Assembly: GCA_044892525.1 (NCBI GenBank)
Contig: CM097885.1
Span: forward strand, 76,198,001-76,262,000
Direction of reading: 5' to 3'
Source of the DNA: Schmidtea polychroa
Lineage: Eukaryota
DNA length: 64,000 nucleotides
In this document: positions 17,142-50,965 of the stretch, in pieces
Numbering within the stretch: position 1 is the stretch's first letter
How the letters are laid out: each line of letters starts with the position of its first letter
Translations under genes and position numbers: made by a program
The notes under the pieces: model-generated
Told to the model about the DNA's origin: nothing
Seen by the model: the letters and a program-made list of their open reading frames with translations, nothing else
The model's database searches: none

Positions 17142-17224
17142 CTTTTTTACAAAATTTCTGTCAACTTTTTTTGACTTTGAATAGCATTCATAATTCATTG
17201 TTCAATGTTTTCATTCAATATTTT

Positions 17225-23229: not shown

Positions 23230-24110
23230 AAGGCTTCTATATATTATTTTCATTCTTTCATTTATTGTATTGCTTTTTTTTCTTACTTCAATCAGATTTT
23301 AAATTATATAATTTACCATGCCTTGACTCATTATTGATTCGAGGTAACAGTTTTGTTTATTTATTGAAAAATTAAAATCCATAACTTTTATTTCACGCCT
23401 AATCGAAATGAAATTCCTTCTAGTAATTATTTTCAAAATAATCTTTAAACTTTACTCAAAATTCAATAGACCTTCATCCTTATTATTTGTTTCTAAATTA
23501 ATTGAGTCAATAAATTATGCCACTACAGGAGAATTACCAGCCGGGTCTAAAACTGGTGAATCATCTGTTCATGATCCAAAAGTAGCACGAGAATAAGAAG
23601 TCATAGCAAAATTTAGTTTGACTATTAAAAATGTTAAATGTTGTTTTGTGACAATAACCAGAGCATTGAAAACTACACAAAAAGATAAAAACTTTGGTTC
23701 TATGTATCCATTTTCAAAATGAGACAATTTAATAATTCTTATTTTAAGGTCTTGATTTAAAATTCGCATTAAATCTGTCATTGGAATTTCAGTCGCATGT
23801 CCAATTAATTTAAATAATTCGTTTCTATTGTAGATGGGTTTTGCTATTTATTTATTATTCCTTTCGGACAACTAACTTTCTTCACTCATTTATTTTCGCT
23901 ATGAATTCTTCAACTTCATTTCGACAACGAGAATATTTTGTCTTTCCTACTACTACTACTATTATTTTAGCAGTGATTTTAATTCGAAATCCGATAATTG
24001 GCTATTCCAAGAGTCTTTTCATTATGTGATGGATAATATTTTCCGGCAATTCATTTACAAGATACAAATCTGCTATGAATCTTGCATTGCCGAATAATTT
24101 ATCTTGAGCT
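23230..24110 (-). pseudogene. Divergent edge copy or progenitor of the satellite monomer; eIF4G-like MIF4G-domain pseudogene
   Basis: The minus strand reads KAQDKLFGNARFIADLYLVNELPENIIHHIMKRLLE*...AKIIVVVVGK. A longer N-terminal half (DLKIRIIKLSHFENGY...) contains sequence that is absent from the array monomers. Confidence 0.6.
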
Positions 24111-27100
24111 TTGTTGACTTGCTCTTACATACTCTCGGCATATATTATTTTCATTCTCTCATTTATTTCATTGCTTTTTTTTCCTTCCACATTCTTCTTT
24201 CTTCTTCAATTATTTTGTTACTTATATTTTTTACCATGCCTTGACATCCATTTAACACGCCTAATCGACATGAAATTCGTTCTAGGCAACGTTTATTGGT
24301 GTCATTATTTTCAAAATAATCTTCAAACTTTTCTCAAAATTCAATGGAGCTTCAATCTTATTATATATTTCTGAATTTGATCTGAACTTTGGTGCTATGT
24401 ATCCATCTTTAAAATGAGACAATTTAATAATTCTTACTCTAAGGTCTTGATTTAACTCATTATTGATTCGAGGTCGACAGTTTTGTTTATTTATTGAAAA
24501 ATTAAAATCCATAACTTTTATTTCAAAACAATCTCTTGATTTTGAAATTTGCATTAAATCTGTCATTGGAATTTCAGTTGCATGTCCAATTAATTTAAAT
24601 AATTCGTTTCTATTGTAGATGGGTTTTGTCTATTTATTTACTATTCCTTTCGGACAACTAACTTTCTTCACTCATTTTTTTTCGCTATGAATTCTTCAAC
24701 TTCATATCGACAACGAGAATATTTTGTCTTTCCTACTACTACTACTATTATTTTAGCAGTGATTTTAATTCGAAATCCGATAATTGGCTATTCCAAGAGT
24801 CTTTTCGTTATGTGATGGATAATATTTTCCGGCAATTCATTTACAAGATACAAATCTGCTATGAATCTTGCATTGCCGAATAATTTATCTTGAGCTCTTC
24901 CAAACTCTCGGCATATATTATTTTCATTCTTTCATTTATTTCATTGCTTTTTTTCCTTTCACATTTTTCTTTCTTTTTCAATTATTTTTTTACTTATATT
25001 TTTTACCATGCCTTGACATCCATATAACGCGCCTAATCGACATGAAATTCGTTCTAGGCAACGTTTATTGGTGTCATTATTTTCAATATAATCTTCAAAC
25101 TTTTCTCAAAATTCAATGGAGCTTCAATCTTATTATATATTTCTGAATTTGATCTGAACTTTGGTGCTATGTATCCATCTTTAAAATGAGACAATTTAAT
25201 AATTCTTACTCTAAGGTCTTGATTTAACTCATTATTGATTCGAGGTCGACAGTTTTGTTTATTTATTGAAAAATTAAAATCCATAACTTTTATTTCAATA
25301 CAATCTCTTGATTTTGAAATTCGCATTAAATCTGTCATTGAAATTTCAGTTGCATGTCCAATTAATTTAAATAATTCGTTTCTATTGTAGATGGGTTTTG
25401 TCTATTTATTTACTATTCCTTTCGGACAACTAACTTTCTTCACTCATTTTTTTTCGCTATGAATTCTTCAACTTCATTTCAACAACGAGAATATTTTGTC
25501 TTTCCTACTACTACTATTATTTTAGCAGTGATTTTAATTCGAAATCCGATAATTGGCTATTCCAAGAGTCTTTTCATTATGTGATGGATAATATTTTCCG
25601 GCAATTCATTTACAAGATACAAATCTGCTATGAATCTTGCATTGCCGAATAATTTATCTTGAGCTCTTCCATACTCTCGGCATATATTATTTTCATTCTT
25701 TCATTTATTTCATTGCTTTTTTTTCCTTTCACATTTTTCTTTCTTTTTCAATTATTTTTTTACTTATATTTTTTACCATGCCTTGACATCCATATAACGC
25801 GCCTAATCGACATGAAATTCGTTCTAGGCAACGTTTTCCTGTGTCATTATTTTCAAAATAATCTTCAAACTTTTCTCAAAATTCAATGGAGCTTCAATCT
25901 TATTATATATTTTTGAAGTTGATCTGAACTTTGGTGCTATGTATCCATCTTTAAAATGAGACAATTTAATAATTCTTACTCTAAGGTCTTGATTTAACTC
26001 TATCTATTTGAGATCGATAGTTTTGTATATTTATTGAAAATTAAAATCCATAATTTTTTTTCAATACAATCTCTTGATTTTGAAATTCGCATTAAATCTG
26101 TCATTGGAATTTCAGTTGCATGTCCAATTAATTTAAATAATTCGTTTCTATTGTAGATGGTTTTGTCTATTTATTTACTATTCCTTTCGGACAACTAACT
26201 CTCTTCACTCATTTTTTTCGCAATGAATTCTTCAACTTCATTTCAACAACGAGAATATTTTGTCTTTCCTACTACTACTACTATTATTTTAGCAGTGATT
26301 TTAATTCGAAATCCGATAATTGGCTATTCCAAGAGTCTTTTCATTATGTGATGGATAATATTTTCCGGCAATTCATTTACAAGATACAAATCTGCTATGA
26401 ATCTTGCATTGCCGAATAATTTATCTTGATCTCTTCCATACTCTCGGCATATATTATTTTCATTCTTTCATTTATTTCATTGCTTTTTTTTCCTTTCACA
26501 TTTTTCTTTCTTTTTCAATTATTTTTTTACTTATATTTTATACCATGCCTTGACATCCATATAACGCGCCTAATCGACATGAAATTCGTTCTAGGCAACG
26601 TTTATTGGTGTCATTATTTTCAAAATAATCTTCAAACTTTTCTCAAAATTCAATGGAGCTTCAATCTTATTATATATTTTTGAAGTTGATCTGAACTTTG
26701 GTGCTATGTATCCATCTTTAAAATGAGACAATTTAATAATTCTTACTCTAAGGTCTTGATTTAACTCTATCTATTTGAGATCGATAGTTTTGTATATTTA
26801 TTGAAAATTAAAATCCATAATTTTTTTTCAATACAATCTCTTGATTTTGAAATTCGCATTAAATCTGTCATTGAAATTTCAGTTGCATGTCCAATTAATT
26901 TAAATAATTCGTTTCTATTGTAGATGGGTTTTGTCTATTTATTTACTATTCCTTTCGGACAACTAACTTTCTTCACTCATTTTTTTTCGCTATGAATTCT
27001 TCAACTTCATTTCAACAACGAGAATATTTTGTCTTTCCTACTACTACTATTATTTTAGCAGTGATTTTAATTCGAAATCCGATAATTGGCTATTCCAAGA

Positions 27101-30100
27101 GTCTTTTCATTATGTGATGGATAATATTTTCCGGCAATTCATTTACAAGATACAAATCTGCTATGAATCTTGCATTGCCGAATAATTTATCTTGAGCTCT
27201 TCCATACTCTCGGCATATATTATTTTCATTCTTTCATTTATTTCATTGCTTTTTTTTCCTTTCACATTTTTCTTTCTTTTTCAATTATTTTTTTACTTAT
27301 ATTTTTTACCATGCCTTGACATCCATATAACGCGCCTAATCGACATGAAATTCGTTCTAGGCAACGTTTTCCTGTGTCATTATTTTCAAAATAATCTTCA
27401 AACTTTTCTCAAAATTCAATGGAGCTTCAATCTTATTATATATTTTTGAAGTTGATCTGAACTTTGGTGCTATGTATCCATCTTTAAAATGAGACAATTT
27501 AATAATTCTTACTCTAAGGTCTTGATTTAACTCTATCTATTTGAGATCGATAGTTTTGTATATTTATTGAAAATTAAAATCCATAATTTTTTTTCAATAC
27601 AATCTCTTGATTTTGAAATTCGCATTAAATCTGTCATTGGAATTTCAGTTGCATGTCCAATTAATTTAAATAATTCGTTTCTATTGTAGATGGTTTTGTC
27701 TATTTATTTACTATTCCTTTCGGACAACTAACTCTCTTCACTCATTTTTTTCGCAATGAATTCTTCAACTTCATTTCAACAACGAGAATATTTTGTCTTT
27801 CCTACTACTACTACTATTATTTTAGCAGTGATTTTAATTCGAAATCCGATAATTGGCTATTCCAAGAGTCTTTTCATTATGTGATGGATAATATTTTCCG
27901 GCAATTCATTTACAAGATACAAATCTGCTATGAATCTTGCATTGCCGAATAATTTATCTTGATCTCTTCCATACTCTCGGCATATATTATTTTCATTCTT
28001 TCATTTATTTCATTGCTTTTTTTTCCTTTCACATTTTTCTTTCTTTTTCAATTATTTTTTTACTTATATTTTATACCATGCCTTGACATCCATATAACGC
28101 GCCTAATCGACATGAAATTCGTTCTAGGCAACGTTTATTGGTGTCATTATTTTCAAAATAATCTTCAAACTTTTCTCAAAATTCAATGGAGCTTCAATCT
28201 TATTATATATTTTTGAAGTTGATCTGAACTTTGGTGCTATGTATCCATCTTTAAAATGAGACAATTTAATAATTCTTACTCTAAGGTCTTGATTTAACTC
28301 TATCTATTTGAGATCGATAGTTTTGTATATTTATTGAAAATTAAAATCCATAATTTTTTTTCAATACAATCTCTTGATTTTGAAATTCGCATTAAATCTG
28401 TCATTGGAATTTCAGTTGCATGTCCAATTAATTTAAATAATTCGTTTCTATTGTAGATGGTTTTGTCTATTTATTTACTATTCCTTTCGGACAACTAACT
28501 CTCTTCACTCATTTTTTTCGCAATGAATTCTTCAACTTCATTTCAACAACGAGAATATTTTGTCTTTCCTACTACTACTACTATTATTTTAGCAGTGATT
28601 TTAATTCGAAATCCGATAATTGGCTATTCCAAGAGTCTTTTCATTATGTGATGGATAATATTTTCCGGCAATTCATTTACAAGATACAAATCTGCTATGA
28701 ATCTTGCATTGCCGAATAATTTATCTTGATCTCTTCCATACTCTCGGCATATATTATTTTCATTCTTTCATTTATTTCATTGCTTTTTTTTCCTTTCACA
28801 TTTTTCTTTCTTTTTCAATTATTTTTTTACTTATATTTTTTACCATGCCTTGACATCCATATAACGCGCCTAATCGACATGAAATTCGTTCTAGGCAACG
28901 TTTATTGGTGTCATTATTTTCAAAATAATCTTCAAACTTTTCTCAAAATTCAATGGAGCTTCAATCTTATTATATATTTCTGAATTTGATCTGAACTTTG
29001 GTGCTATGTATCCATCTTTAAAATGAGACAATTTAATAATTCTTACTCTAAGGTCTTGATTTAACTCATTATTGATTCGAGGTCGACAGTTTTGTTTATT
29101 TATTGAAAAATTAAAATCCATAACTTTTATTTCAAAACAATCTCTTGATTTTGAAATTTGCATTAAATCTGTCATTGGAATTTCAGTTGCATGTCCAATT
29201 AATTTAAATAATTCGTTTCTATTGTAGATGGGTTTTGTCTATTTATTTACTATTCCTTTCGGACAACTAACTTTCTTCACTCATTTTTTTTCGCTATGAA
29301 TTCTTCAACTTCATATCGACAACGAGAATATTTTGTCTTTCCTACTACTACTACTATTATTTTAGCAGTGATTTTAATTCGAAATCCGATAATTGGCTAT
29401 TCCAAGAGTCTTTTCGTTATGTGATGGTAATTTTTTCCGGCAATTCATTTACAAGATACAAATCTGCTATGAATCTTGCATTGCCGAATAATTTATCTTG
29501 AGCTCTTCCAAACTCTCGGCATATATTATTTTCATTCTTTCATTTATTTCATTGCTTTTTTTCCTTTCACATTTTTCTTTCTTTTTCAATTATTTTTTTA
29601 CTTATATTTTTTACCATGCCTTGACATCCATATAACGCGCCTAATCGACATGAAATTCGTTCTAGGCAACGTTTATTGGTGTCATTATTTTCAAAATAAT
29701 CTTCAAACTTTTCTCAAAATTCAATGGAGCTTCAATCTTATTATATATTTCTGAATTTGATCTGAACTTTGGTGCTATGTATCCATCTTTAAAATGAGAC
29801 AATTTAATAATTCTTACTCTAAGGTCTTGATTTAACTCATTATTGATTCGAGGTCGACAGTTTTGTTTATTTATTGAAAAATTAAAATCCATAACTTTTA
29901 TTTCAATACAATCTCTTGATTTTGAAATTCGCATTAAATCTGTCATTGGAATTTCAGTTGCATGTCCAATTAATTTAAATAATTCGTTTCTATTGTAGAT
30001 GGGTTTTGTCTATTTATTTACTATTCCTTTCGGACAACTAACTTTCTACACTCATTTTTTTTCGCAATGAATTCTTCAACTTCATTTCAACAACGAGAAT

Positions 30101-33100
30101 ATTTTGTCTTTCCTACTACTACTATTATTTTAGCAGTGATTTTAATTCGAAATCCGATAATTGGCTATTCCAAGAGTCTTTTCATTATGTGATGGATAAT
30201 ATTTTCCGGCAATTCATTTACAAGATACAAATCTGCTATGAATCTTGCATTGCCGAATAATTTATCTTGAGCTCTTCCATACTCTCGGCATATATTATTT
30301 TCATTCTTTCATTTATTTCATTGCTTTTTTTTCCTTTCACATTTTTCTTTCTTTTTCAATTATTTTTTTACTTATATTTTTTACCATGCCTTGACATCCA
30401 TATAACGCGCCTAATCGACATGAAATTCGTTCTAGGCAACGTTTTCCTGTGTCATTATTTTCAAAATAATCTTCAAACTTTTCTCAAAATTCAATGGAGC
30501 TTCAATCTTATTATATATTTTTGAAGTTGATCTGAACTTTGGTGCTATGTATCCATCTTTAAAATGAGACAATTTAATAATTCTTACTCTAAGGTCTTGA
30601 TTTAACTCTATCTATTTGAGATCGATAGTTTTGTATATTTATTGAAAATTAAAATCCATAATTTTTTTTCAATACAATCTCTTGATTTTGAAATTCGCAT
30701 TAAATCTGTCATTGGAATTTCAGTTGCATGTCCAATTAATTTAAATAATTCGTTTCTATTGTAGATGGTTTTGTCTATTTATTTACTATTCCTTTCGGAC
30801 AACTAACTCTCTTCACTCATTTTTTTCGCAATGAATTCTTCAACTTCATTTCAACAACGAGAATATTTTGTCTTTCCTACTACTACTACTATTATTTTAG
30901 CAGTGATTTTAATTCGAAATCCGATAATTGGCTATTCCAAGAGTCTTTTCATTATGTGATGGATAATATTTTCCGGCAATTCATTTACAAGATACAAATC
31001 TGCTATGAATCTTGCATTGCCGAATAATTTATCTTGATCTCTTCCATACTCTCGGCATATATTATTTTCATTCTTTCATTTATTTCATTGCTTTTTTTTC
31101 CTTTCACATTTTTCTTTCTTTTTCAATTATTTTTTTACTTATATTTTATACCATGCCTTGACATCCATATAACGCGCCTAATCGACATGAAATTCGTTCT
31201 AGGCAACGTTTATTGGTGTCATTATTTTCAAAATAATCTTCAAACTTTTCTCAAAATTCAATGGAGCTTCAATCTTATTATATATTTTTGAAGTTGATCT
31301 GAACTTTGGTGCTATGTATCCATCTTTAAAATGAGACAATTTAATAATTCTTACTCTAAGGTCTTGATTTAACTCTATCTATTTGAGATCGATAGTTTTG
31401 TATATTTATTGAAAATTAAAATCCATAATTTTTTTTCAATACAATCTCTTGATTTTGAAATTCGCATTAAATCTGTCATTGGAATTTCAGTTGCATGTCC
31501 AATTAATTTAAATAATTCGTTTCTATTGTAGATGGTTTTGTCTATTTATTTACTATTCCTTTCGGACAACTAACTCTCTTCACTCATTTTTTTCGCAATG
31601 AATTCTTCAACTTCATTTCAACAACGAGAATATTTTGTCTTTCCTACTACTACTACTATTATTTTAGCAGTGATTTTAATTCGAAATCCGATAATTGGCT
31701 ATTCCAAGAGTCTTTTCATTATGTGATGGATAATATTTTCCGGCAATTCATTTACAAGATACAAATCTGCTATGAATCTTGCATTGCCGAATAATTTATC
31801 TTGATCTCTTCCATACTCTCGGCATATATTATTTTCATTCTTTCATTTATTTCATTGCTTTTTTTTCCTTTCACATTTTTCTTTCTTTTTCAATTATTTT
31901 TTTACTTATATTTTTTACCATGCCTTGACATCCATATAACGCGCCTAATCGACATGAAATTCGTTCTAGGCAACGTTTATTGGTGTCATTATTTTCAAAA
32001 TAATCTTCAAACTTTTCTCAAAATTCAATGGAGCTTCAATCTTATTATATATTTCTGAATTTGATCTGAACTTTGGTGCTATGTATCCATCTTTAAAATG
32101 AGACAATTTAATAATTCTTACTCTAAGGTCTTGATTTAACTCATTATTGATTCGAGGTCGACAGTTTTGTTTATTTATTGAAAAATTAAAATCCATAACT
32201 TTTATTTCAAAACAATCTCTTGATTTTGAAATTTGCATTAAATCTGTCATTGGAATTTCAGTTGCATGTCCAATTAATTTAAATAATTCGTTTCTATTGT
32301 AGATGGGTTTTGTCTATTTATTTACTATTCCTTTCGGACAACTAACTTTCTTCACTCATTTTTTTTCGCTATGAATTCTTCAACTTCATATCGACAACGA
32401 GAATATTTTGTCTTTCCTACTACTACTACTATTATTTTAGCAGTGATTTTAATTCGAAATCCGATAATTGGCTATTCCAAGAGTCTTTTCGTTATGTGAT
32501 GGTAATTTTTTCCGGCAATTCATTTACAAGATACAAATCTGCTATGAATCTTGCATTGCCGAATAATTTATCTTGAGCTCTTCCAAACTCTCGGCATATA
32601 TTATTTTCATTCTTTCATTTATTTCATTGCTTTTTTTCCTTTCACATTTTTCTTTCTTTTTCAATTATTTTTTTACTTATATTTTTTACCATGCCTTGAC
32701 ATCCATATAACGCGCCTAATCGACATGAAATTCGTTCTAGGCAACGTTTATTGGTGTCATTATTTTCAAAATAATCTTCAAACTTTTCTCAAAATTCAAT
32801 GGAGCTTCAATCTTATTATATATTTCTGAATTTGATCTGAACTTTGGTGCTATGTATCCATCTTTAAAATGAGACAATTTAATAATTCTTACTCTAAGGT
32901 CTTGATTTAACTCATTATTGATTCGAGGTCGACAGTTTTGTTTATTTATTGAAAAATTAAAATCCATAACTTTTATTTCAATACAATCTCTTGATTTTGA
33001 AATTCGCATTAAATCTGTCATTGGAATTTCAGTTGCATGTCCAATTAATTTAAATAATTCGTTTCTATTGTAGATGGGTTTTGTCTATTTATTTACTATT

Positions 33101-36100
33101 CCTTTCGGACAACTAACTTTCTACACTCATTTTTTTTCGCAATGAATTCTTCAACTTCATTTCAACAACGAGAATATTTTGTCTTTCCTACTACTACTAT
33201 TATTTTAGCAGTGATTTTAATTCGAAATCCGATAATTGGCTATTCCAAGAGTCTTTTCATTATGTGATGGATAATATTTTCCGGCAATTCATTTACAAGA
33301 TACAAATCTGCTATGAATCTTGCATTGCCGAATAATTTATCTTGAGCTCTTCCATACTCTCGGCATATATTATTTTCATTCTTTCATTTATTTCATTGCT
33401 TTTTTTTCCTTTCACATTTTTCTTTCTTTTTCAATTATTTTTTTACTTATATTTTTTACCATGCCTTGACATCCATATAACGCGCCTAATCGACATGAAA
33501 TTCGTTCTAGGCAACGTTTTCCTGTGTCATTATTTTCAAAATAATCTTCAAACTTTTCTCAAAATTCAATGGAGCTTCAATCTTATTATATATTTTTGAA
33601 GTTGATCTGAACTTTGGTGCTATGTATCCATCTTTAAAATGAGACAATTTAATAATTCTTACTCTAAGGTCTTGATTTAACTCTATCTATTTGAGATCGA
33701 TAGTTTTGTATATTTATTGAAAATTAAAATCCATAATTTTTTTTCAATACAATCTCTTGATTTTGAAATTCGCATTAAATCTGTCATTGGAATTTCAGTT
33801 GCATGTCCAATTAATTTAAATAATTCGTTTCTATTGTAGATGGTTTTGTCTATTTATTTACTATTCCTTTCGGACAACTAACTCTCTTCACTCATTTTTT
33901 TCGCAATGAATTCTTCAACTTCATTTCAACAACGAGAATATTTTGTCTTTCCTACTACTACTACTATTATTTTAGCAGTGATTTTAATTCGAAATCCGAT
34001 AATTGGCTATTCCAAGAGTCTTTTCATTATGTGATGGATAATATTTTCCGGCAATTCATTTACAAGATACAAATCTGCTATGAATCTTGCATTGCCGAAT
34101 AATTTATCTTGATCTCTTCCATACTCTCGGCATATATTATTTTCATTCTTTCATTTATTTCATTGCTTTTTTTTCCTTTCACATTTTTCTTTCTTTTTCA
34201 ATTATTTTTTTACTTATATTTTATACCATGCCTTGACATCCATATAACGCGCCTAATCGACATGAAATTCGTTCTAGGCAACGTTTATTGGTGTCATTAT
34301 TTTCAAAATAATCTTCAAACTTTTCTCAAAATTCAATGGAGCTTCAATCTTATTATATATTTTTGAAGTTGATCTGAACTTTGGTGCTATGTATCCATCT
34401 TTAAAATGAGACAATTTAATAATTCTTACTCTAAGGTCTTGATTTAACTCTATCTATTTGAGATCGATAGTTTTGTATATTTATTGAAAATTAAAATCCA
34501 TAATTTTTTTTCAATACAATCTCTTGATTTTGAAATTCGCATTAAATCTGTCATTGGAATTTCAGTTGCATGTCCAATTAATTTAAATAATTCGTTTCTA
34601 TTGTAGATGGTTTTGTCTATTTATTTACTATTCCTTTCGGACAACTAACTCTCTTCACTCATTTTTTTCGCAATGAATTCTTCAACTTCATTTCAACAAC
34701 GAGAATATTTTGTCTTTCCTACTACTACTACTATTATTTTAGCAGTGATTTTAATTCGAAATCCGATAATTGGCTATTCCAAGAGTCTTTTCATTATGTG
34801 ATGGATAATATTTTCCGGCAATTCATTTACAAGATACAAATCTGCTATGAATCTTGCATTGCCGAATAATTTATCTTGATCTCTTCCATACTCTCGGCAT
34901 ATATTATTTTCATTCTTTCATTTATTTCATTGCTTTTTTTTCCTTTCACATTTTTCTTTCTTTTTCAATTATTTTTTTACTTATATTTTTTACCATGCCT
35001 TGACATCCATATAACGCGCCTAATCGACATGAAATTCGTTCTAGGCAACGTTTATTGGTGTCATTATTTTCAAAATAATCTTCAAACTTTTCTCAAAATT
35101 CAATGGAGCTTCAATCTTATTATATATTTCTGAATTTGATCTGAACTTTGGTGCTATGTATCCATCTTTAAAATGAGACAATTTAATAATTCTTACTCTA
35201 AGGTCTTGATTTAACTCATTATTGATTCGAGGTCGACAGTTTTGTTTATTTATTGAAAAATTAAAATCCATAACTTTTATTTCAAAACAATCTCTTGATT
35301 TTGAAATTTGCATTAAATCTGTCATTGGAATTTCAGTTGCATGTCCAATTAATTTAAATAATTCGTTTCTATTGTAGATGGGTTTTGTCTATTTATTTAC
35401 TATTCCTTTCGGACAACTAACTTTCTTCACTCATTTTTTTTCGCTATGAATTCTTCAACTTCATATCGACAACGAGAATATTTTGTCTTTCCTACTACTA
35501 CTACTATTATTTTAGCAGTGATTTTAATTCGAAATCCGATAATTGGCTATTCCAAGAGTCTTTTCGTTATGTGATGGTAATTTTTTCCGGCAATTCATTT
35601 ACAAGATACAAATCTGCTATGAATCTTGCATTGCCGAATAATTTATCTTGAGCTCTTCCAAACTCTCGGCATATATTATTTTCATTCTTTCATTTATTTC
35701 ATTGCTTTTTTTCCTTTCACATTTTTCTTTCTTTTTCAATTATTTTTTTACTTATATTTTTTACCATGCCTTGACATCCATATAACGCGCCTAATCGACA
35801 TGAAATTCGTTCTAGGCAACGTTTATTGGTGTCATTATTTTCAAAATAATCTTCAAACTTTTCTCAAAATTCAATGGAGCTTCAATCTTATTATATATTT
35901 CTGAATTTGATCTGAACTTTGGTGCTATGTATCCATCTTTAAAATGAGACAATTTAATAATTCTTACTCTAAGGTCTTGATTTAACTCATTATTGATTCG
36001 AGGTCGACAGTTTTGTTTATTTATTGAAAAATTAAAATCCATAACTTTTATTTCAATACAATCTCTTGATTTTGAAATTCGCATTAAATCTGTCATTGGA

Positions 36101-39100: not shown

Positions 39101-42100
39101 AAAAATTAAAATCCATAACTTTTATTTCAAAACAATCTCTTGATTTTGAAATTCGCATTAAATCTGTCATTGGAATTTCAGTTGCATGTCCAATTAATTT
39201 AAATAATTCGTTTCTATTGTAGATGGTTTTGTCTATTTATTTACTATTCCTTTCGGACAACTAACTTTCTTCACTCATTTTTTTTCGCTATGAATTCTTC
39301 AACTTCATATCGACAACGAGAATATTTTGTCTTTCCTACTACTACTACTATTATTTTAGCAGTGATTTTAATTCGAAATCCGATAATTGGCTATTCCAAG
39401 AGTCTTTTCGTTATGTGATGGTAATTTTTTCCGGCAATTCATTTACAAGATACAAATCTGCTATGAATCTTGCATTGCCGAATAATTTATCTTGAGCTCT
39501 TCCAAACTCTCGGCATATATTATTTTCATTCTTTCATTTATTTCATAGCTTTTTTTCCTTTCACATTTTTCTTTCTTTTTCAATTATTTTTTTACTTATA
39601 TTTTTTACCATGCCTTGACATCCATATAACGCGCCTAATCGACATGAAATTCGTTCTAGGCAACGTTTATTGGTGTCATTATTTTCAAAATAATCTTCAA
39701 ACTTTTCTCAAAATTCAATGGAGCTTCAATCTTATTATATATTTCTGAATTTGATCTGAACTTTGGTGCTATGTATCCATCTTTAAAATGAGACAATTTA
39801 ATAATTCTTACTCTAAGGTCTTGATTTAACTCATTATTGATTCGAGGTCGACAGTTTTGTTTATTTATTGAAAAATTAAAATCCATAACTTTTATTTCAA
39901 TACAATCTCTTGATTTTGAAATTCGCATTAAATCTGTCATTGGAATTTCAGTTGCATGTCCAATTAATTTAAATAATTCGTTTCTATTGTAGATGGGTTT
40001 TGTCTATTTATTTACTATTCCTTTCGGACAACTAACTTTCTACACTCATTTTTTTTCGCAATGAATTCTTCAACTTCATTTCAACAACGAGAATATTTTG
40101 TCTTTCCTACTACTACTATTATTTTAGCAGTGATTTTAATTCGAAATCCGATAATTGGCTATTCCAAGAGTCTTTTCATTATGTGATGGATAATATTTTC
40201 CGGCAATTCATTTACAAGATACAAATCTGCTATGAATCTTGCATTGCCGAATAATTTATCTTGAGCTCTTCCATACTCTCGGCATATATTATTTTCATTC
40301 TTTCATTTATTTCATTGCTTTTTTTTCCTTTCACATTTTTCTTTCTTTTTCAATTATTTTTTTACTTATATTTTTTACCATGCCTTGACATCCATATAAC
40401 GCGCCTAATCGACATGAAATTCGTTCTAGGCAACGTTTTCCTGTGTCATTATTTTCAAAATAATCTTCAAACTTTTCTCAAAATTCAATGGAGCTTCAAT
40501 CTTATTATATATTTTTGAAGTTGATCTGAACTTTGGTGCTATGTATCCATCTTTAAAATGAGACAATTTAATAATTCTTACTCTAAGGTCTTGATTTAAC
40601 TCTATCTATTTGAGATCGATAGTTTTGTATATTTATTGAAAATTAAAATCCATAATTTTTTTTCAATACAATCTCTTGATTTTGAAATTCGCATTAAATC
40701 TGTCATTGGAATTTCAGTTGCATGTCCAATTAATTTAAATAATTCGTTTCTATTGTAGATGGTTTTGTCTATTTATTTACTATTCCTTTCGGACAACTAA
40801 CTCTCTTCACTCATTTTTTTCGCAATGAATTCTTCAACTTCATTTCAACAACGAGAATATTTTGTCTTTCCTACTACTACTACTATTATTTTAGCAGTGA
40901 TTTTAATTCGAAATCCGATAATTGGCTATTCCAAGAGTCTTTTCATTATGTGATGGATAATATTTTCCGGCAATTCATTTACAAGATACAAATCTGCTAT
41001 GAATCTTGCATTGCCGAATAATTTATCTTGATCTCTTCCATACTCTCGGCATATATTATTTTCATTCTTTCATTTATTTCATTGCTTTTTTTTCCTTTCA
41101 CATTTTTCTTTCTTTTTCAATTATTTTTTTACTTATATTTTATACCATGCCTTGACATCCATATAACGCGCCTAATCGACATGAAATTCGTTCTAGGCAA
41201 CGTTTATTGGTGTCATTATTTTCAAAATAATCTTCAAACTTTTCTCAAAATTCAATGGAGCTTCAATCTTATTATATATTTTTGAAGTTGATCTGAACTT
41301 TGGTGCTATGTATCCATCTTTAAAATGAGACAATTTAATAATTCTTACTCTAAGGTCTTGATTTAACTCTATCTATTTGAGATTGATAGTTTTGTATATT
41401 TATTGAAAATTAAAATCCATAATTTTTTTTCAATACAATCTCTTGATTTTGAAATTCGCATTAAATCTGTCATTGGAATTTCAGTTGCATGTCCAATTAA
41501 TTTAAATAATTCGTTTCTATTGTAGATGGTTTTGTCTATTTATTTACTATTCCTTTCGGACAACTAACTCTCTTCACTCATTTTTTTCGCAATGAATTCT
41601 TCAACTTCATTTCAACAACGAGAATATTTTGTCTTTCCTACTACTACTACTATTATTTTAGCAGTGATTTTAATTCGAAATCCGATAATTGGCTATTCCA
41701 AGAGTCTTTTCATTATGTGATGGATAATATTTTCCGGCAATTCATTTACAAGATACAAATCTGCTATGAATCTTGCATTGCCGAATAATTTATCTTGATC
41801 TCTTCCATACTCTCGGCATATATTATTTTCATTCTTTCATTTATTTCATTGCTTTTTTTTCCTTTCACATTTTTCTTTCTTTTTCAATTATTTTTTTACT
41901 TATATTTTTTACCATGCCTTGACATCCATATAACGCGCCTAATCGACATGAAATTCGTTCTAGGCAACGTTTATTGGTGTCATTATTTTCAAAATAATCT
42001 TCAAACTTTTCTCAAAATTCAATGGAGCTTCAATCTTATTATATATTTCTGAATTTGATCTGAACTTTGGTGCTATGTATCCATCTTTAAAATGAGACAA

Positions 42101-45100
42101 TTTAATAATTCTTACTCTAAGGTCTTGATTTAACTCATTATTGATTCGAGGTCGACAGTTTTGTTTATTTATTGAAAAATTAAAATCCATAACTTTTATT
42201 TCAAAACAATCTCTTGATTTTGAAATTTGCATTAAATCTGTCATTGGAATTTCAGTTGCATGTCCAATTAATTTAAATAATTCGTTTCTATTGTAGATGG
42301 GTTTTGTCTATTTATTTACTATTCCTTTCGGACAACTAACTTTCTTCACTCATTTTTTTTCGCTATGAATTCTTCAACTTCATATCGACAACGAGAATAT
42401 TTTGTCTTTCCTACTACTACTACTATTATTTTAGCAGTGATTTTAATTCGAAATCCGATAATTGGCTATTCCAAGAGTCTTTTCGTTATGTGATGGTAAT
42501 TTTTTCCGGCAATTCATTTACAAGATACAAATCTGCTATGAATCTTGCATTGCCGAATAATTTATCTTGAGCTCTTCCAAACTCTCGGCATATATTATTT
42601 TCATTCTTTCATTTATTTCATTGCTTTTTTTCCTTTCACATTTTTCTTTCTTTTTCAATTATTTTTTTACTTATATTTTTTACCATGCCTTGACATCCAT
42701 ATAACGCGCCTAATCGACATGAAATTCGTTCTAGGCAACGTTTATTGGTGTCATTATTTTCAAAATAATCTTCAAACTTTTCTCAAAATTCAATGGAGCT
42801 TCAATCTTATTATATATTTCTGAATTTGATCTGAACTTTGGTGCTATGTATCCATCTTTAAAATGAGACAATTTAATAATTCTTACTCTAAGGTCTTGAT
42901 TTAACTCATTATTGATTCGAGGTCGACAGTTTTGTTTATTTATTGAAAAATTAAAATCCATAACTTTTATTTCAATACAATCTCTTGATTTTGAAATTCG
43001 CATTAAATCTGTCATTGGAATTTCAGTTGCATGTCCAATTAATTTAAATAATTCGTTTCTATTGTAGATGGGTTTTGTCTATTTATTTACTATTCCTTTC
43101 GGACAACTAACTTTCTACACTCATTTTTTTTCGCAATGAATTCTTCAACTTCATTTCAACAACGAGAATATTTTGTCTTTCCTACTACTACTATTATTTT
43201 AGCAGTGATTTGAATTCGAAATCCGATAATTGGCTATTCCAAGAGTCTTTTCATTATGTGATGGATAATATTTTCCGGCAATTCATTTACAAGATACAAA
43301 TCTGCTATGAATCTTGCATTGCCGAATAATTTATCTTGAGCTCTTCCAAACTCTCGGCATATATTATTTTCATTCTTTCATTTATTTCATTGCTTTTTTT
43401 TCCTTTCACATTTTTCTTTCTTTTTCAATTATTTTTTTACTTATATTTTTTACCATGCCTTGACATCCATATAACACGCCTAATCGACATGAAATTCGTT
43501 CTAGGCAACGTTTATTGGTGTCATTATTTTCAAAATAATCTTCAAACTTTTCTCAAAATTCAATGGAGCTTCAATCTTATTATATATTTTTGAAGTTGAT
43601 CTGAACTTTGGTGCTATGTATCCATCTTTAAAATGAGACAATTTAATAATTCTTACTCTAAGGTCTTGATTTAACTCATTATTGATTCGAGGTCGACAGT
43701 TTTGTTTATTTATTGAAAAATTAAAATCCATAACTTTTATTTCAAAACAATCTCTTGATTTTGAAATTTGCATTAAATCTGTCATTGGAATTTCAGTTGC
43801 ATGTCCAATTAATTTAAATAATTCGTTTCTATTGTAGATGGGTTTTGTCTATTTATTTACTGTTCCTTTCGGACAACTAACTTTCTTCACTCATTTATTT
43901 TCGCTATGAATTTTTCAACTTCATTTCGACAACGAGAATATTTTGTCTTTCCTACTACTACTACTATTATTTTAGCAGTGATTTTAATTCGAAATCCGAT
44001 AATTGGCTATTCCAAGAGTCTTTTCATTATTTGATGGATAATATTTTCCGGCAATTCATTTACAAGATACAAATCTGCTATGAATCTTGCATTGCCGAAT
44101 AATTTATCTTGAGCTCTTCCATACTCTCGGCATATATTATTTTCATTCTTTCATTTATTTCATTGCTTTTTTTTCCTTTCACATTTTTCTTTCTTTTTCA
44201 ATTATTTTTTTACTTATATTTTTTACCATGCCTTGACAACTTTAATTCTTCAACTTCATTTCGACAACGAGAATATTTTGTCTTTCCTATTACTACTATT
44301 ATTTTAGCAGTGATTTTAATTCGAAATACGATAATTGGCTATTCCAAGAGTCTTTTCATTATGTGATGGATAATATTTTCCGGCAATTCATTTACAAGAT
44401 ACAAATCTGCTATGAATCTTGCATTGCCGAATAATTTATCTTGAGCTTTGTTGACTTGCTCTTACATACTCTCGGCATATATTATTTTCATTCTCTCATT
44501 TATTTCATTGCTTTTTTTTTTTTCCACATTTTTCTTTCTTCAATTATTTTGTTACTTATATTTTTTACCATGCCTTGACATCCATATAACACGCCTAATC
44601 GACATGAAATTCGTTCTAGGCAACGTTTTCCTGTGTCATTATTTTCAAAATAATCTTCAAACTTTTCTCAAAATTCAATGGAGCTTCAATCTTATTATAT
44701 ATTTTTGAAGTTGATCTGAACTTTGGTGCTATGTATCCATCTTTAAAATGAGACAATTTAATAATTCTTACTCTAAGGTCTTGATTTAACTCTATCTATT
44801 TGAGATCGATAGTTTTGTATATTTATTGAAAATTAAAATCCATAATTTTTTTTCAATACAATCTCTTGATTTTGAAATTCGCATTAAATCTGTCATTGGA
44901 ATTTCAGTTGCATGTCCAATTAATTTAAATAATTCGTTTCTATTGTAGATGGTTTTGTCTATTTATTTACTATTCCTTTCGGACAACTAACTCTCTTCAC
45001 TCATTTTTTTCGCAATGAATTCTTCAACTTCATTTCAACAACGAGAATATTTTGTCTTTCCTACTACTACTACTATTATTTTAGCAGTGATTTTAATTCG

Positions 45101-48100
45101 AAATCCGATAATTGGCTATTCCAAGAGTCTTTTCATTATGTGATGGATAATATTTTCCGGCAATTCATTTACAAGATACAAATCTGCTATGAATCTTGCA
45201 TTGCCGAATAATTTATCTTGATCTCTTCCATACTCTCGGCATATATTATTTTCATTCTTTCATTTATTTCATTGCTTTTTTTTCCTTTCACATTTTTCTT
45301 TCTTTTTCAATTATTTTTTTACTTATATTTTTTACCATGCCTTGACATCCATATAACGCGCCTAATCGACATGAAATTCGTTCTAGGCAACGTTTATTGG
45401 TGTCATTATTTTCAAAATAATCTTCAAACTTTTCTCAAAATTCAATGGAGCTTCAATCTTATTATATATTTCTGAATTTGATCTGAACTTTGGTGCTATG
45501 TATCCATCTTTAAAATGAGACAATTTAATAATTCTTACTCTAAGGTCTTGATTTAACTCATTATTGATTCGAGGTCGACAGTTTTGTTTATTTATTGAAA
45601 AATTAAAATCCATAACTTTTATTTCAATACAATCTCTTGATTTTGAAATTCGCATTAAATCTGTCATTGGAACTTCAGTTGCATGTCTAATTAATTTAAA
45701 TAATTCGTTTCTATTGTAGATGGGTTTTGTCTATTTATTTACTATTCCTTTCGGACAACTAACTTTCTTCACTCATTTTTTTTCGCAATGAATTCTTCAA
45801 CTTCATTTCAACAACGAGAATATTTTGTCTTTCCTACTACTACTATTATTTTAGCAGTGATTTTAATTCGAAATCCGATAATTGGCTATTCCAAGAGTCT
45901 TTTCATTATGTGATGGATAATATTTTCCGGCAATTCATTTACAAGATACAAATCTGCTATGAATCTTGCATTGCCGAATAATTTATCTTGAGCTCTTCCA
46001 TACTCTCGGCATATATTATTTTCATTCTTTCATTTATTTCATTGCTTTTTTTTCCTTTCACATTTTTCTTTCTTTTTCAATTATTTTTTTACTTATATTT
46101 TTTACCATGCCTTGACATCCATATAACGCGCCTAATCGACATGAAATTCGTTCTAGGCAACGTTTTCCTGTGTCATTATTTTCAAAATAATCTTCAAACT
46201 TTTCTCAAAATTCAATGGAGCTTCAATCTTATTATATATTTTTGAAGTTGATCTGAACTTTGGTGCTATGTATCCATCTTTAAAATGAGACAATTTAATA
46301 ATTCTTACTCTAAGGTCTTGATTTAACTCTATCTATTTGAGATCGATAGTTTTGTATATTTATTGAAAATTAAAATCCATAATTTTTTTTCAATACAATC
46401 TCTTGATTTTGAAATTCGCATTAAATCTGTCATTGGAATTTCAGTTGCATGTCCAATTAATTTAAATAATTCGTTTCTATTGTAGATGGTTTTGTCTATT
46501 TATTTACTATTCCTTTCGGACAACTAACTCTCTTCACTCATTTTTTTCGCAATGAATTCTTCAACTTCATTTCAACAACGAGAATATTTTGTCTTTCCTA
46601 CTACTACTACTATTATTTTAGCAGTGATTTTAATTCGAAATCTGATAATTGGCTATTCCAAGAGTCTTTTCATTATGTGATGGATAATATTTTCCGGCAA
46701 TTCATTTACAAGATACAAATCTGCTATGAATCTTGCATTGCCGAATAATTTATCTTGAGCTCTTTCATACTCTCGGCATATATTATTTTCATTCTTTCAT
46801 TTATTTCATTGCTTTTTTTTCCTTCCATATTTTTCTTTCTTCTTCAATAATTTTGTTACTTATATTTTTTACCATGCCTTGACATCCAATTAACACGCCT
46901 AATCGACATGAAATTCGTTCTAGGCAACGTTTATTGGTGTCATTATTTTCAAAATAATCTTCAAACTTTTCTCAAAATTCAATGGAGCTTCAATCTTATT
47001 ATATATTCTTGAAGTTGATCTGAACTTTGGTGCTATGTATCCATCTTTAAAATGAGACAATTTAATAATTCTTACTCTAAGGTCTTGATTTAACTCATTA
47101 TTGATTCGAGGTCGACAGTTTTGTTTATTTATTGAAAAATTAAAATCCATAACTTTTATTTCAATACAATCTCTTGATTTTGAAATTTGCATTAAATCTG
47201 TCATTGGAATTTCAGTTGCATGTCCAATTAATTTAAATAATTCGTTTCTATTGTAGATGGGTTTTGTCTATTTATTTACTGTTCCTTTCGGACAACTAAC
47301 TTTCTTCACTCATTTATTTTCGCTATGAATTTTTCAACTTCATTTCGACAACGAGAATATTTTGTCTTTCCTACTACTACTACTATTATTTTAGCAGTGA
47401 TTTTAATTCGAAATCCGATAATTGGCTATTCCAAGAGTCTTTTCATTATGTGATGGATAATATTTTCCGGCAATTCATTTACAAGATACAAATCTGCTAT
47501 GAATCTTGCATTGCCGAATAATTTATCTTGATCTCTTCCATACTCTCGGCATATATTATTTTCATTCTTTCATTTATTTCATTGCTTTTTTTTCCTTTCA
47601 CATTTTTCTTTCTTTTTCAATTATTTTTTTCTTATATTTTTTACCATGCCTTGACAACTTTAATTCTTCAACTTCATTTCGACAACGAGAATATTTTGTC
47701 TTTCCTACTACTACTACTATTATTTTAGCATTGATTTTAATTCGAAATCCGATAATTGGCTATTCCAAGAGTCTTTTCATTATGTGATGGATAATATTTT
47801 CCGGCAATTCATTTACAAGATACAAATCTGCTATGATTCTTGCATTGCCGAATAATTTATCTTGAGCTCTTCCATACTCTCGGCATATATTATTTTCATT
47901 CTTTCATTTATTTCATTGCTTTTTTTTCCTTTCACATTTTTCTTTCTTTTTCAATTATTTTTTTACTTATATTTTTTACCATGCCTTGACAACTTTAATT
48001 CTTCAACTTCATTTCGACAACGAGAATATTTTGTCTTTCCTATTACTACTATTATTTTAGCAGTGATTTTAATTCGAAATACGATAATTGGCTATTCCAA

Positions 48101-50965
48101 GAGTCTTTTCATTATGTGATGGATAATATTTTCCGGCAATTCATTTACAAGATACAAATCTGCTATGAATCTTGCATTGCCGAATAATTTATCTTGAGCT
48201 TTGTTGACTTGCTCTTACATACTCTCGGCATATATTATTTTCATTCTCTCATTTATTTCATTGCTTTTTTTTCCTTCCACATTTTTCTTTCTTCTTCAAT
48301 TATTTTGTTACTTATATTTTTTACCATGCCTTGACATCCATATAACACGCCTAATCGACATGAAATTCGTTCTAGGCAACGTTTTCCTGTGTCATTATTT
48401 TCAAAATAATCTTCAAACTTTTCTCAAAATTCAATGGAGCTTCAATCTTATTATATATTTTTGAAGTTGATCTGAACTTTGGTGCTATGTATCCATCTTT
48501 AAAATGAGACAATTTAATAATTCTTACTCTAAGGTCTTGATTTAACTCTATCTATTTGAGATCGATAGTTTTGTATATTTATTGAAAATTAAAATCCATA
48601 ATTTTTTTTCAATACAATCTCTTGATTTTGAAATTCGCATTAAATCTGTCATTGGAATTTCAGTTGCATGTCCAATTAATTTAAATAATTCGTTTCTATT
48701 GTAGATGGTTTTGTCTATTTATTTACTATTCCTTTCGGACAACTAACTCTCTTCACTCATTTTTTTCGCAATGAATTCTTCAACTTCATTTCAACAACGA
48801 GAATATTTTGTCTTTCCTACTACTACTACTATTATTTTAGCAGTGATTTTAATTCGAAATCCGATAATTGGCTATTCCAAGAGTCTTTTCATTATGTGAT
48901 GGATAATATTTTCCGGCAATTCATTTACAAGATACAAATCTGCTATGAATCTTGCATTGCCGAATAATTTATCTTGAGCTCTTTCATACTCTCGGCATAT
49001 ATTATTTTCATTCTTTCATTTATTTCATTGCTTTTTTTTCCTTCCATATTTTTCTTTCTTCTTCAATAATTTTGTTACTTATATTTTTTACCATGCCTTG
49101 ACATCCATTTAACACGCCTAATCGACATGAAATTCGTTCTAGGCAACGTTTATTGGTGTCATTATTTTCAAAATAATCTTCAAACTTTTCTCAAAATTCA
49201 ATGGAGCTTCAATCTTATTATATATTTTTGAAATTGATCTGAACTTTGGTGCTATGTATCCATCTTTAAAATGAGACAATTTAATAATTCTTACTCTAAG
49301 GTCTTGATTTAACTCATTATCTATTTGAGATCGATAGTTTTGTATATTTATTGAAAATTAAAATCCATAATTTTTTTTCAATACAATCTCTTGATTTTGA
49401 AATTTGCATTAAATCTGTCATTGGAATTTCAGTTGCATGTCCAATTAATTTAAATAATTCGTTTCTATTGTAGATGGGTTTTGTCTATTTATTTACTGTT
49501 CCTTTCGGACAACTAACTTTCTTCACTCATTTATTTTCGCTATGAATTTTTCAACTTCATTTCGACAACGAGAATATTTTGTCTTTCCTACTACTACTAC
49601 TATTATTTTAGCAGTGATTTTAATTCGAAATCCGATAATTGGCTATTCCAAGAGTCTTTTCATTATGTGATGGATAATATTTTCCGGCAATTCATTTACA
49701 AGATACAAATCTGCTATGAATCTTGCATTGCCGAATAATTTATCTTGATCTCTTCCATACTCTCGGCATATATTATTTTCATTCTTTCATTTATTTCATT
49801 GCTTTTTTTTCCTTTCACATTTTTCTTTCTTTTTCAATTATTTTTTTCTTATATTTTTTACCATGCCTTGACAACTTTAATTCTTCAACTTCATTTCGAC
49901 AACGAGAATATTTTGTCTTTCCTACTACTACTACTATTATTTTAGCATTGATTTTAATTCGAAATCCGATAATTGGCTATTCCAAGAGTCTTTTCATTAT
50001 GTGATGGATAATATTTTCCGGCAATTCATTTACAAGATACAAATCTGCTATGATTCTTGCATTGCCGAATAATTTATCTTGAGCTCTTCCATACTCTCGG
50101 CATATATTATTTTCATTCTTTCATTTATTTCATTGCTTTTTTTTCCTTTCACATTTTTCTTTCTTTTTCAATTATTTTTTTACTTATATTTTTTACCATG
50201 CCTTGACAACTTTAATTCTTCAACTTCATTTCGACAACGAGAATATTTTGTCTTTCCTATTACTACTATTATTTTAGCAGTGATTTTAATTCGAAATACG
50301 ATAATTGGCTATTCCAAGAGTCTTTTCATTATGTGATGGATAATATTTTCCGGCAATTCATTTACAAGATACAAATCTGCTATGAATCTTGCATTGCCGA
50401 ATAATTTATCTTGATCTCTTCCATACTCTCGGCATATATTATTTTCATTCTTTCATTTATTTCATTGCTTTTTTTTCCTTTCACATTTTTCTTTCTTTTT
50501 CAATTATTTTTTTACTTATATGTTTTACCATGCCTTGACATCCATATAACGCGCCTAATCGACATGAAATTCGTTCTAGGCAACGTTTATTGGTGTCATT
50601 ATTTTCAAAATAATCTTCAAACTTTTCTCAAAATTCAATGGAACTTCAATCTTATTATATATTTCTGAATTTGATCTGAACTTTGGTGCTATGTATCCAT
50701 CTTTAAAATGAGACAATTTAATAATTCTTACTCTAAGGTCTTGATTTAACTCATTATTGATTCGAGGTCGACAGTTTCGTTTATTTATTGAAAAATTAAA
50801 ATCCATAACTTTTATTTCAATACAATCTCTTGATTTTGAAATTTGCATTAAATCTGTCATTGGAATTTCAGTTGCATGTCCAATTAATTTAAATAATTCG
50901 TTTCTATTGTAGATGGGTTTTGTCTATTTATTTACTATTCCTTTCTGATAACTAATTTTCTTCAC
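23760..50965. repeat. Tandem array of 767-771-bp monomers (about 33 full plus 5 short monomers of about 335 bp) with a 3075-bp 4-mer higher-order repeat
   Basis: The ORF track recurs every 767-771 bp. Variant-specific ORFs recur at 3075 bp (28726/31801/34876; 29476/32551/35626; 30267/33342). Confidence 0.97.

Follow-up and report, generated by a model that had tools for sequence, protein, structure and literature searches.

How a 27-kb tandem array came to occupy a predicted intron of a KATNIP-type gene in the planarian Schmidtea polychroa, and whether it serves any purpose there, is the question raised by the 64,000-nt stretch of DNA analyzed here (the window). In profile searches, ORFs of the DUF4457 gene, which we take to be KATNIP, lie at 4435-7347, 52851-53291, and 56952-57566, and no DUF4457 motif was found inside the intron. 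The original prediction had placed the array within an intron and antisense to the KATNIP pre-mRNA, an arrangement borne out by an in-frame GT-AG join that encloses the array in a 45,551-nt intron, this join being one of four in-frame candidates and predicted from sequence alone (Table 1). The explanation we favor, with considerable confidence, is that the array consists of ~35 copies, arranged head-to-tail and antisense in the predicted KATNIP intron, of a broken mini-eIF4G gene fragment from the host; it was likely multiplied at this site by unequal crossing-over and is likely a functionless sequence removed by splicing.

Self-BLAST agrees with the predicted 27-kb, ~35-fold satellite: the array runs head-to-tail, its copies are 94-96% identical to the first monomer, and its span equals 35.3 monomer lengths. 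Thirty-four anchors delimit 33 units, 30 of which measure 765-786 bp; the other three (1110, 1439, and 1447 bp) carry internal 334-bp duplications. Monomer classes differ by up to 30 positions, and the longest ATG-initiated ORF within the array, present in 17 copies, spans 94 aa. The array behaves as satellite DNA in that its monomers are head-to-tail, homogenized, and non-coding, and in that four classes (C-G-D-F) recur five times as a 3,075-bp higher-order unit; the spread over several loci or the very long arrays of a satellite family were not found. All 24 genome matches to the 27-mer spanning a deletion junction of the monomer (see below) fall in the window, as does every match above 70% identity to the 115-codon monomer frame (150 of 161 genome candidates scored), and the satellite is thus a single locus.

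Table 1. Features of the window (positions counted from its first letter).
Feature	Position	Strand	Remarks
KATNIP-type (DUF4457) coding exon upstream of intron	4435..7343	+	Predicted donor GT at 7344
Predicted intron, 45,551 nt	7344..52894	+	Contains array; in-frame GT-AG join
Older scrambled fragments of mini-eIF4G gene	23239..23760	-	Left array edge
Tandem array, ~35 monomers	23750..50965	-	Each a broken mini-eIF4G ORF fragment (codons 40-354, 148-nt internal deletion)
Edge monomer, 786 bp	23886..24671	-	Nearest neighbors differ at 15 positions
MIF4G core piece FGNARFIADLY	24005..24124	-	PF02854 positions 94-129, E 1.4e-4, under cut-off
Longest open frame of one monomer, 115 codons stop to stop	24285..24629	-	YxxxxL-phi-type motif YNRNELF 5' of first ATG
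Young higher-order repeat, classes C-G-D-F, 3,075 bp, x5	26977..43120	-	0-1 differences within class
Odd monomer inside higher-order repeat region	36202-36971	-	
Rearranged array end	43891..50965	-	334-bp sub-repeats (47328-48336, 49545-50540) and three long units
KATNIP-type exon after intron	52895..53291	+	End is open-frame end
Last KATNIP-type DUF4457 frame	56952..57566	+	

The MIF4G origin originally proposed for the monomer stands far above chance. Monomers are 79-84% identical at the DNA level to intact ORFs elsewhere in the genome, which match PF02854 at E 1.6e-25 to 1.6e-26; their scores of 90.5 and 93.8 bits exceed the curated cut-off of 30.8 bits. Derivation of the satellite from this mini-eIF4G gene is almost certain. 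The peptide pieces quoted in the prediction were found on the minus strand. Its suggested profile check gave a divided result, with two of five open monomer pieces matching PF02854 alone (E 1.4e-4 and 6.6e-4; 22.1 and 19.9 bits), both below the cut-off. A monomer is not about one domain, as had been supposed: it corresponds to residues 40-354 of the parent ORF, comprising ~115 residues upstream of MIF4G and 142 of the 223 MIF4G residues, and with 81 of these missing it does not hold a complete domain. Two helix assignments were also mistaken; DLRVRIIKLSHF had been equated with the RVRSILNKLT helix, whereas the first helix is in fact FEKSLKIILKIMTP, and EIYNKIEAPLNF had been equated with LIFEKAISEPNF, whereas the FEKAI helix falls in a 148-nt deletion. 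This deletion removes part of the start of MIF4G and lies between two 8-bp direct repeats (AAACTTTG, as read from the alignment).

A search for the intact source gene, likewise proposed, recovered 75 copies, of which 58 are open; they fall into four clusters, and three of these are large tandem arrays with 2.5-3.4-kb units and one intronless ORF per unit. The parent ORF, which would be the starting point of the satellite, is intronless, ~390 codons long, and matches PF02854 positions 1-202; it is closer to eIF4GII/eIF4G1 (E 1e-21) than to eIF4G2/DAP5 (1.5e-16), and its nearest solved chains are human eIF4GII (1hu3) and eIF4G1 (8huj). Approximately 95 residues upstream of MIF4G it carries YDRNELL or YNRNELL, a putative eIF4E-binding motif of the defining YxxxxL-phi type; the motif is degenerate in several homologs, and an eIF4G with introns has a related one at the end of its 973-aa frame. 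An MA3 domain (PF02847) was found in neither of the two parent ORFs scanned, in contrast to all four longer intronless paralogs. The parent thus resembles the eIF4G family in its MIF4G domain (HEAT-1, PF02854) and upstream motif yet differs in its small size, intronless and MA3-less structure, and 75 copies, and the satellite differs in being non-coding. The eIF4E-binding-type motif in the monomer and the tandem amplification of the parent itself had both been overlooked. A 4E-BP-like peptide encoded by the satellite was considered and rejected, because the first ATG of that frame comes only after the motif.

The gene frame of the monomers contains 3-5 stops each, and dN/dS is 0.75-0.95 in all 14 monomer-gene comparisons, a pattern suggesting neutral decay with later local amplification. 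Changes between monomer and gene are distributed over all three codon positions, and relative to an outgroup homolog (P0001) the satellite side has accumulated 47-53 residue changes against 9-14 on the gene side (six of six comparisons). In the proposed course of events, one copy or fragment would have moved into the intron as DNA, lacking promoter, start codon, 3' end, spacer, and poly(A); the intronic fragment has lost the 148 nt between the direct repeats and has diverged by ~17%, with dN/dS near 1. Head-to-tail duplication and unequal exchange may subsequently have generated four monomer classes and, very recently, the 4-mer higher-order repeat, with transcription presumably confined to the KATNIP pre-mRNA and the transcript degraded along with the intron.

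Neither the 5' and 3' surroundings of the mini-eIF4G gene nor the spacers of the intact arrays resemble the array flanks more than shuffled sequence does (against the 3' region, the left flank falls below the shuffles), and the hallmarks of a processed pseudogene are missing, the monomer stopping at codon 354 with no poly(A) or target duplication; intron loss is uninformative here, the parent ORF having none to lose. No parent closer than ~83% identity was found, which counts against the preferred explanation, as the insertion route is not visible. Five candidates for a closer parent (L093, L100, L101, L136, and L137) were rejected, being 77-83% identical to the monomers and no nearer than the arrays, as was a locus at C3:21.4 Mb, an isolated 23-bp match. 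Also counting against it, the classes differ at the deletion join, where class C monomers have kept letters from its 5' side and all other classes those from its 3' side; one clean deletion event does not account for this. Finally, neutral decay of coding capacity is compatible with, and does not exclude, a role for the RNA, which counts on the same side.

Such a role has been envisaged along the lines of Su(Ste), the array being kept or expanded because antisense intronic RNA gives rise to piRNAs or siRNAs that damp the mini-eIF4G genes. The satellite is indeed antisense to an amplified intact gene family, its expansion is recent, seven perfect 25-mers occur both in it and in the C3-type gene, and about a fifth of one monomer's 30-mers (152-172 of 743) lie within three mismatches of intact genes; moreover, Y-linked Su(Ste) pseudogene repeats yield piRNAs against Stellate (PMC8794474, accessible part), and the available portions of two planarian studies describe piRNA sources that are sometimes pseudogene-like, which is counted in favor (bioRxiv 10.64898/2026.01.28.702291; PMC10954484). 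Identity to the targets is, however, only ~83%, with no perfect 30-mer among the 743 and no perfect 25-mer in common with two C4 arrays, and the divergence of the satellite appears unconstrained. In the same partial sources, piRNAs of planarian genic clusters are rarer over introns than over exons (bioRxiv 10.64898/2026.01.28.702291) and SMEDWI-1 piRNA production is linked to the pioneer round of translation (PMC10954484); an intron, once excised, would be expected to miss that round. Suppression of this kind is considered unlikely, and the satellite probably has no selected function. An effect in cis, whereby 27 kb of added intron or its chromatin changes when or how strongly KATNIP is transcribed, is highly doubtful: the array makes up ~60% of the predicted intron, but other transposon pieces and minisatellites are also present, as unconstrained sequence would have.

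The original prediction had left the source open between a host eIF4G paralog and a virus or mobile element. The latter would make the MIF4G gene a cargo of Polinton/Maverick viruses and the satellite a relic of such an element, and all four intact clusters do lie among Polinton genes; in the Atlas, one virus cluster also has a feature score of 0.93 (rank 22). Rather than lying between terminal inverted repeats and travelling with an element, however, the MIF4G ORF is interrupted: two Polintons split it, their ends being AGTAG...CTACT and flanked by 6-bp target duplications (both junction pairs read). Candidates for the Polinton ATPase number 5,075 genome-wide versus 155 for MIF4G, window positions 12300-23300 and 50900-57000 do not match the Polinton-bearing blocks compared, and eukaryote-type homologs and host eIF4G paralogs are the sequences with which the gene groups. 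Nor is a preference of Polintons for these arrays supported, as the elements are abundant throughout the genome. The viral reading is thus largely refuted and extremely improbable, leaving the host paralog as the part of the claim that stands. Equally remote is the prospect that the array is an artefact of assembly: its near-identical higher-order copies invite the suspicion, but the monomer classes are distinct, with up to 30 differences, and in read run X2 (possibly the assembly's own sample) the monomer contig has a depth of 6,120 compared with 165-420 for unique flank contigs, an excess of about 15-20-fold, and its loose ends read into the next monomer, which indicates that the repeat is present in the reads. 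Of other runs compared with window positions 21500-24540, X7 and X8 (tentatively RNA) yielded no satellite-type contig among the pieces inspected, and X1 left the unique flanks uncovered; sequence words of the intact gene occurred in six runs of unrecorded type from two studies, in no listed RNA run, and hardly at all in eight runs guessed to be RNA. No weight is given to these blanks. A decayed host mini-eIF4G fragment remains the preferred account.

Amplification extends to other translation-factor genes. As a rule, eIF4E has few gene copies and is rate-limiting; here an intact eIF4E is arrayed in 1.7-kb units, each with one intronless ORF that keeps the conserved tryptophans, and a 28-mer from it has 878 exact genome copies, a count that could be inflated by unplaced duplicates of a single array. 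eIF4A has a dozen copies. TCTP (five matches from seven candidates) and NAC (four from seven), used as controls, are not amplified, and a general amplification of embryo genes was rejected on these grounds. Complex prediction for the arrayed eIF4E with mini-eIF4G residues 52-140, run without alignments, gave 0.01, 0.40, and 0.00, the median falling below the 0.34 mark, a result that speaks neither for nor against binding. In the parts of Davies et al. (2017) (PMC5293490) that were available, eIF4A-, eIF4E-, and eIF4G-like transcripts are enriched in early Schmidtea mediterranea embryos; by-eye translation of four such transcripts' probes or clones matched them to intronless paralogs, namely a 651-aa eIF4G (L087), a three-copy eIF4E (L106), and two eIF4A types (L130, L134), and none of the embryo probes there matched mini-eIF4G or the arrayed eIF4E. 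Hence SMED30027996, the probe for which matches the 651-aa paralog, was rejected as the ortholog of the parent, and the embryo eIF4E probe, which matches the three-copy paralog, as the arrayed eIF4E; the Davies files searched contained one eIF4G-annotated transcript. In literature made up mostly of papers readable without subscription, no report of the satellite, the mini-eIF4G arrays, or the eIF4E array was found. An amplified, stage-specific mini-eIF4F serving one burst of germ-line or early-embryo translation is a tentative proposal, somewhat short of an even chance. Its extended form, in which rDNA-scale arrays (~880 eIF4E, ~75 mini-eIF4G, and a dozen eIF4A) supply the planarian with a dedicated mini cap-binding complex for such a burst, with the intronic satellite as a Su(Ste)-like antisense dosage brake, is decidedly unlikely.

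D4Z4/DUX4 and RS447/USP17 are gene-containing macrosatellites with one intronless ORF per unit, a layout equal to that of the intact mini-eIF4G and eIF4E arrays; in contrast, the window array is a dead derivative, and the amplified genes are core translation factors, with eIF4E at up to ~880 copies. Drosophila Su(Ste) and PCKR, from the CK2-beta-tes/Stellate family, likewise consist of tandem pseudogenized copies of an amplified gene (PMC8794474, in part), whereas the satellite unit here is a promoterless internal coding fragment, intronic, at one locus, and ~83% identical to the intact genes. As in higher-order-repeat satellites (per the accessible text of the review PMC5615363), the monomers are head-to-tail and homogenized, here with a 4-mer unit, yet the array is small (27 kb), single-locus, and built of protein-coding sequence. 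According to a figure legend in a 2019 review, the coding-to-satellite direction was not yet proved (PMC6947457); Su(Ste) and PCKR are nevertheless precedents for it, at the level of whole genes.

The satellite offers a clean, datable example of protein-coding sequence becoming satellite DNA while the intact parent family persists in the genome, with all stages visible, from the stray copy through a deletion between short direct repeats and neutral decay to higher-order amplification. By itself it is probably without function. Of stronger interest is the parent system, in which an intact eIF4E ORF is arrayed hundreds of times beside arrays of a minimal eIF4G and two housekeeping controls are not. 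If these arrays were expressed together, one could ask directly whether stage-specific translation machinery can be built through gene dosage, in the manner of rDNA and histones.

The satellite is real, confined to a single locus and derived from a gene. In the 781-Mb, AT-rich animal genome to which the window belongs (G000; C1:76198001-76262000), self-BLAST resolved window positions 23750-50965 into head-to-tail copies amounting to 35.3 monomer lengths, in line with the roughly 35-fold amplification of the original prediction. Thirty-four anchors cut the array into 30 units of 765-786 bp and three longer units; pairwise differences among the 30 monomers, aligned without the three long units, average 14.8 bases and reach at most 30. 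The 3,075-bp period seen by self-BLAST corresponds to the order of four monomer classes, C-G-D-F, which recurs five times at 26977-43120 with 0-1 differences within a class, while 334-bp sub-repeats and older, scrambled pieces occupy the right end and the left edge (23239-23760), respectively. The repeat is present in reads, because the monomer contig reached a depth of 6,120 vs 165-420 for unique flank contigs in sequencing run X2 (possibly the assembly's own sample). Frames of DUF4457, to which we attach the gene name KATNIP, flank the array on either side, and the most consensus-like of four in-frame joins predicts a single intron (7344-52894, 45,551 nt), within which no DUF4457 motif was found. 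Long frames stand open on both strands of the intron's 27-bp minisatellite (HRTECGASG-type repeats).

The monomer is 79-84% identical in DNA to intact ORFs in the same genome and corresponds to nucleotides 118-1063 of the parent ORF minus deletions of 148 and 13 nt, spanning parent residues 40-354 and covering 142 of 223 MIF4G residues. The predicted MIF4G/eIF4G family holds, given that the intact ORFs match the MIF4G profile PF02854 (E 1.6e-25 to 1.6e-26) and have eIF4GII and eIF4G1 as closest solved relatives, and a search for intact source genes located them in the arrays described below; open monomer pieces gave weak PF02854 matches in two of five cases. The first two motif pairings originally proposed were mistaken: the true first helix is FEKSLKIILKIMTP, and the monomer has lost the FEKAI helix. 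As read off the monomer-ORF alignment, the 148-nt deletion is flanked by two AAACTTTG copies spaced 148 nt, and its join carries the 5'-side letters in class C and the 3'-side letters in the remaining classes; at the head-to-tail join, only GT is common with both gene ends.

Features of the window and related loci in G000 (contigs C1, C2, C3 etc.)
Feature	Location	Details
hAT remnant	window 421-824	
KATNIP-type open frame, very long	window 4435-7347	970 codons
Tc1/mariner-type transposase	window 7705-8699	in two frames
Minisatellite, 27-bp unit	window 9812-12296	array's intron; 92 copies, 93% matches
Second DDE_3 fragment	window 18281-18610	
Candidate LTR-retrotransposon gag/pol remnants	window 55500-56300 and 61600-64000	frames judged by eye
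Tandem repeat, 29-bp unit, strongly G-skewed	window 57754-58918	directly past last KATNIP-type frame; 40 copies
mini-eIF4G array	C4:83.90-84.01 Mb	
mini-eIF4G array	C4:85.82-85.93 Mb	
mini-eIF4G array	C3:137.95-138.08 Mb	
mini-eIF4G	C1:125.87-125.88 Mb	two copies
eIF4E array	C1:92.60-93.31 Mb, also C59, C100	loci L111, L118-L127
eIF4A-sized ORF clusters	C1:230.75 and 256.95 Mb; C3:66.2, 66.8, 69.2 Mb	loci L130-L134
Intronless eIF4G paralogs with MA3	C3:46.6-47.5 Mb, C29, C36; C3:49.75 Mb; C2:163.5-163.7 Mb; C3:48.16 Mb	

Most of the 118 PF02854 matches in G000 (150 of 155 candidates scored) are intronless, tandemly arrayed ORFs of 393-417 codons from stop to stop. By hand count, 75 loci outside the window match the monomer's 115-codon frame in full, 58 of them with an unbroken frame of at least 393 codons (150 of 161 candidates scored). 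The parent has a motif of the YxxxxL-phi (4E-binding) type at residue 62, followed by MIF4G and an ORF end about 25 residues beyond; MA3 is absent from it and present in 4/4 longer intronless paralogs. Because it combines the motif and MIF4G with a short tail and no MA3, the parent is, on its predicted layout, a mini-eIF4G. Nine homologs were recovered among proteins of 221-706 aa, six of which (386-454 aa, 44-68% identity) share this layout. In trees built without homologs P0003, P0008, P0010 and P0012, the ten short proteins formed one group with the longer alignment (support 99/98); with the shorter alignment the support was 88/75, and their place among the longer paralogs was not resolved by the tree. 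P0003 bears the label of an Aeromonas hydrophila MAG; it shares 63% identity with mini-eIF4G, groups with an unnamed protein of 418 aa and is likely animal DNA contaminating a bacterial bin. The dN/dS ratios of the gene vs older stray copies (0.36, 0.44, 0.62) show a codon-level signature of constraint relative to those copies. Between current arrays the ratios are 0.86-1.12 in 6/6 comparisons, each on 14-55 differences, so that recent purifying selection on arrayed residues is not evident, though the frames are open; such near-1 values are evidence against presuming that every copy matters. Stray fragments L136, L137, L093, L100 and L101 are 85-98% identical to an array unit, with no tandem amplification within the stretches fetched.

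The satellite's origin from a mini-eIF4G gene is close to certain. A long branch leads to the single clade (100/100) that holds the monomers; they contain 3-5 stops, show 47-53 residue changes on the satellite side vs 9-14 on the gene side, and yield dN/dS of 0.75-0.95 against intact genes in 14/14 comparisons; all 24 genomic occurrences of a deletion-junction 27-mer fall within the window. The array flanks have no similarity above shuffles to the gene's 5' region, 3' region or spacer, and no parent closer than the known mini-eIF4G genes was found among the stray copies and matches compared. The array's longest ATG frame (94 aa) starts downstream of the 4E-type motif, and the satellite is probably without function. 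In the simplest history, an old stray fragment of mini-eIF4G would have decayed, been duplicated head to tail and recently expanded through unequal exchange, the last steps being suggested by the repeat pattern.

A viral source had also been contemplated, and Polinton genes (A32-type ATPase, integrase, adenain-type protease, TBP-like) do surround 4/4 intact clusters. A viral origin of the MIF4G gene was nevertheless rejected, as the mini-eIF4G ORF is itself split by two Polintons, which end in AGTAG...CTACT and are bordered by 6-bp target duplications (2/2 junction pairs read), and candidates for the ATPase number 5,075 across G000. The Polinton family is young, since of 150 ATPase copies scored at least 148 have a listed identity of 100%. 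Its TBP-like ORF adjoins the ATPase (PF00352, E 6e-15; L048:5857-6318 and related elements). Polintons also lie within and beside the eIF4E array (L120-L122, L128; C1:92.50-92.63 Mb), where one eIF4E frame is cut at a Polinton end.

Judging from orientation and the predicted intron, about 27 kb of the KATNIP pre-mRNA would be antisense to mini-eIF4G, which the original prediction regarded as a possible small-RNA source. Pairing potential appears partial: 0 of 743 monomer 30-mers match intact genes perfectly and 152-172 do so within three mismatches, with seven perfect 25-mers shared with the C3 gene and none with two C4 genes. Suppression of mini-eIF4G by such RNA is improbable. The planarian piRNA literature points in both directions: pseudogene-like transcripts supply piRNAs (bioRxiv 10.64898/2026.01.28.702291; PMC10954484), but piRNAs over introns are described as rarer (bioRxiv 10.64898/2026.01.28.702291) and piRNA production as coupled to translation (PMC10954484). 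In run X8, presumed to be RNA, the listed letters of a 162-nt contig (depth 3.5) agree with an intact C4 gene at 5/6 and with the satellite at 1/6, which hints weakly that transcription comes from the intact family rather than the satellite.

Other translation factors are represented by intronless copies. Among 949 PF01652 candidates (150 scored), most scored matches belong to a tandem array of 1.7-kb units, each with one intact intronless 190-aa eIF4E that matches solved eIF4E at E 1e-42 with tryptophans in place; an exact 28-mer from this ORF occurs 878 times (control, 0), a count that unplaced contigs may partly duplicate. About 14 intronless eIF4A-sized ORFs form small clusters (56 of 221 candidates scored; six ORFs translated, one identified by name), and the MA3-bearing eIF4G paralogs measure 805 (18 matches), 788, 651 (three copies) and 666 aa. 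TCTP (five matches) and NAC (four) are not amplified in G000. A CWC22-like MIF4G gene (L091, L092) occurs a second time, at C1:256.9 Mb, in a copy interrupted by a stop.

In S. mediterranea, eIF4G-, eIF4E- and eIF4A-like transcripts are enriched in the early embryo, with SMED30027996 at an RPKM of 400 at stage 2 and below 0.1 in adults (PMC5293490), and oogenesis requires a germline eIF4E paralog (PMC5544531). By eye, an embryo-enriched probe matches the 651-aa eIF4G paralog, and two eIF4A-sized types match embryo-enriched sequences; such matches are one reason for treating G000 as planarian. A germ-line or embryo role of the arrayed eIF4E and mini-eIF4G may be entertained tentatively, with the balance leaning slightly against it, and is an analogy because the readable probes correspond, by eye, to eIF4G and eIF4E paralogs of low copy number rather than to the arrayed genes. 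The terms eIF4, Polinton and Maverick are absent from the main text of PMC11410931. The value of the locus rests on the intact eIF4E and mini-eIF4G arrays that it exposed as much as on the satellite.
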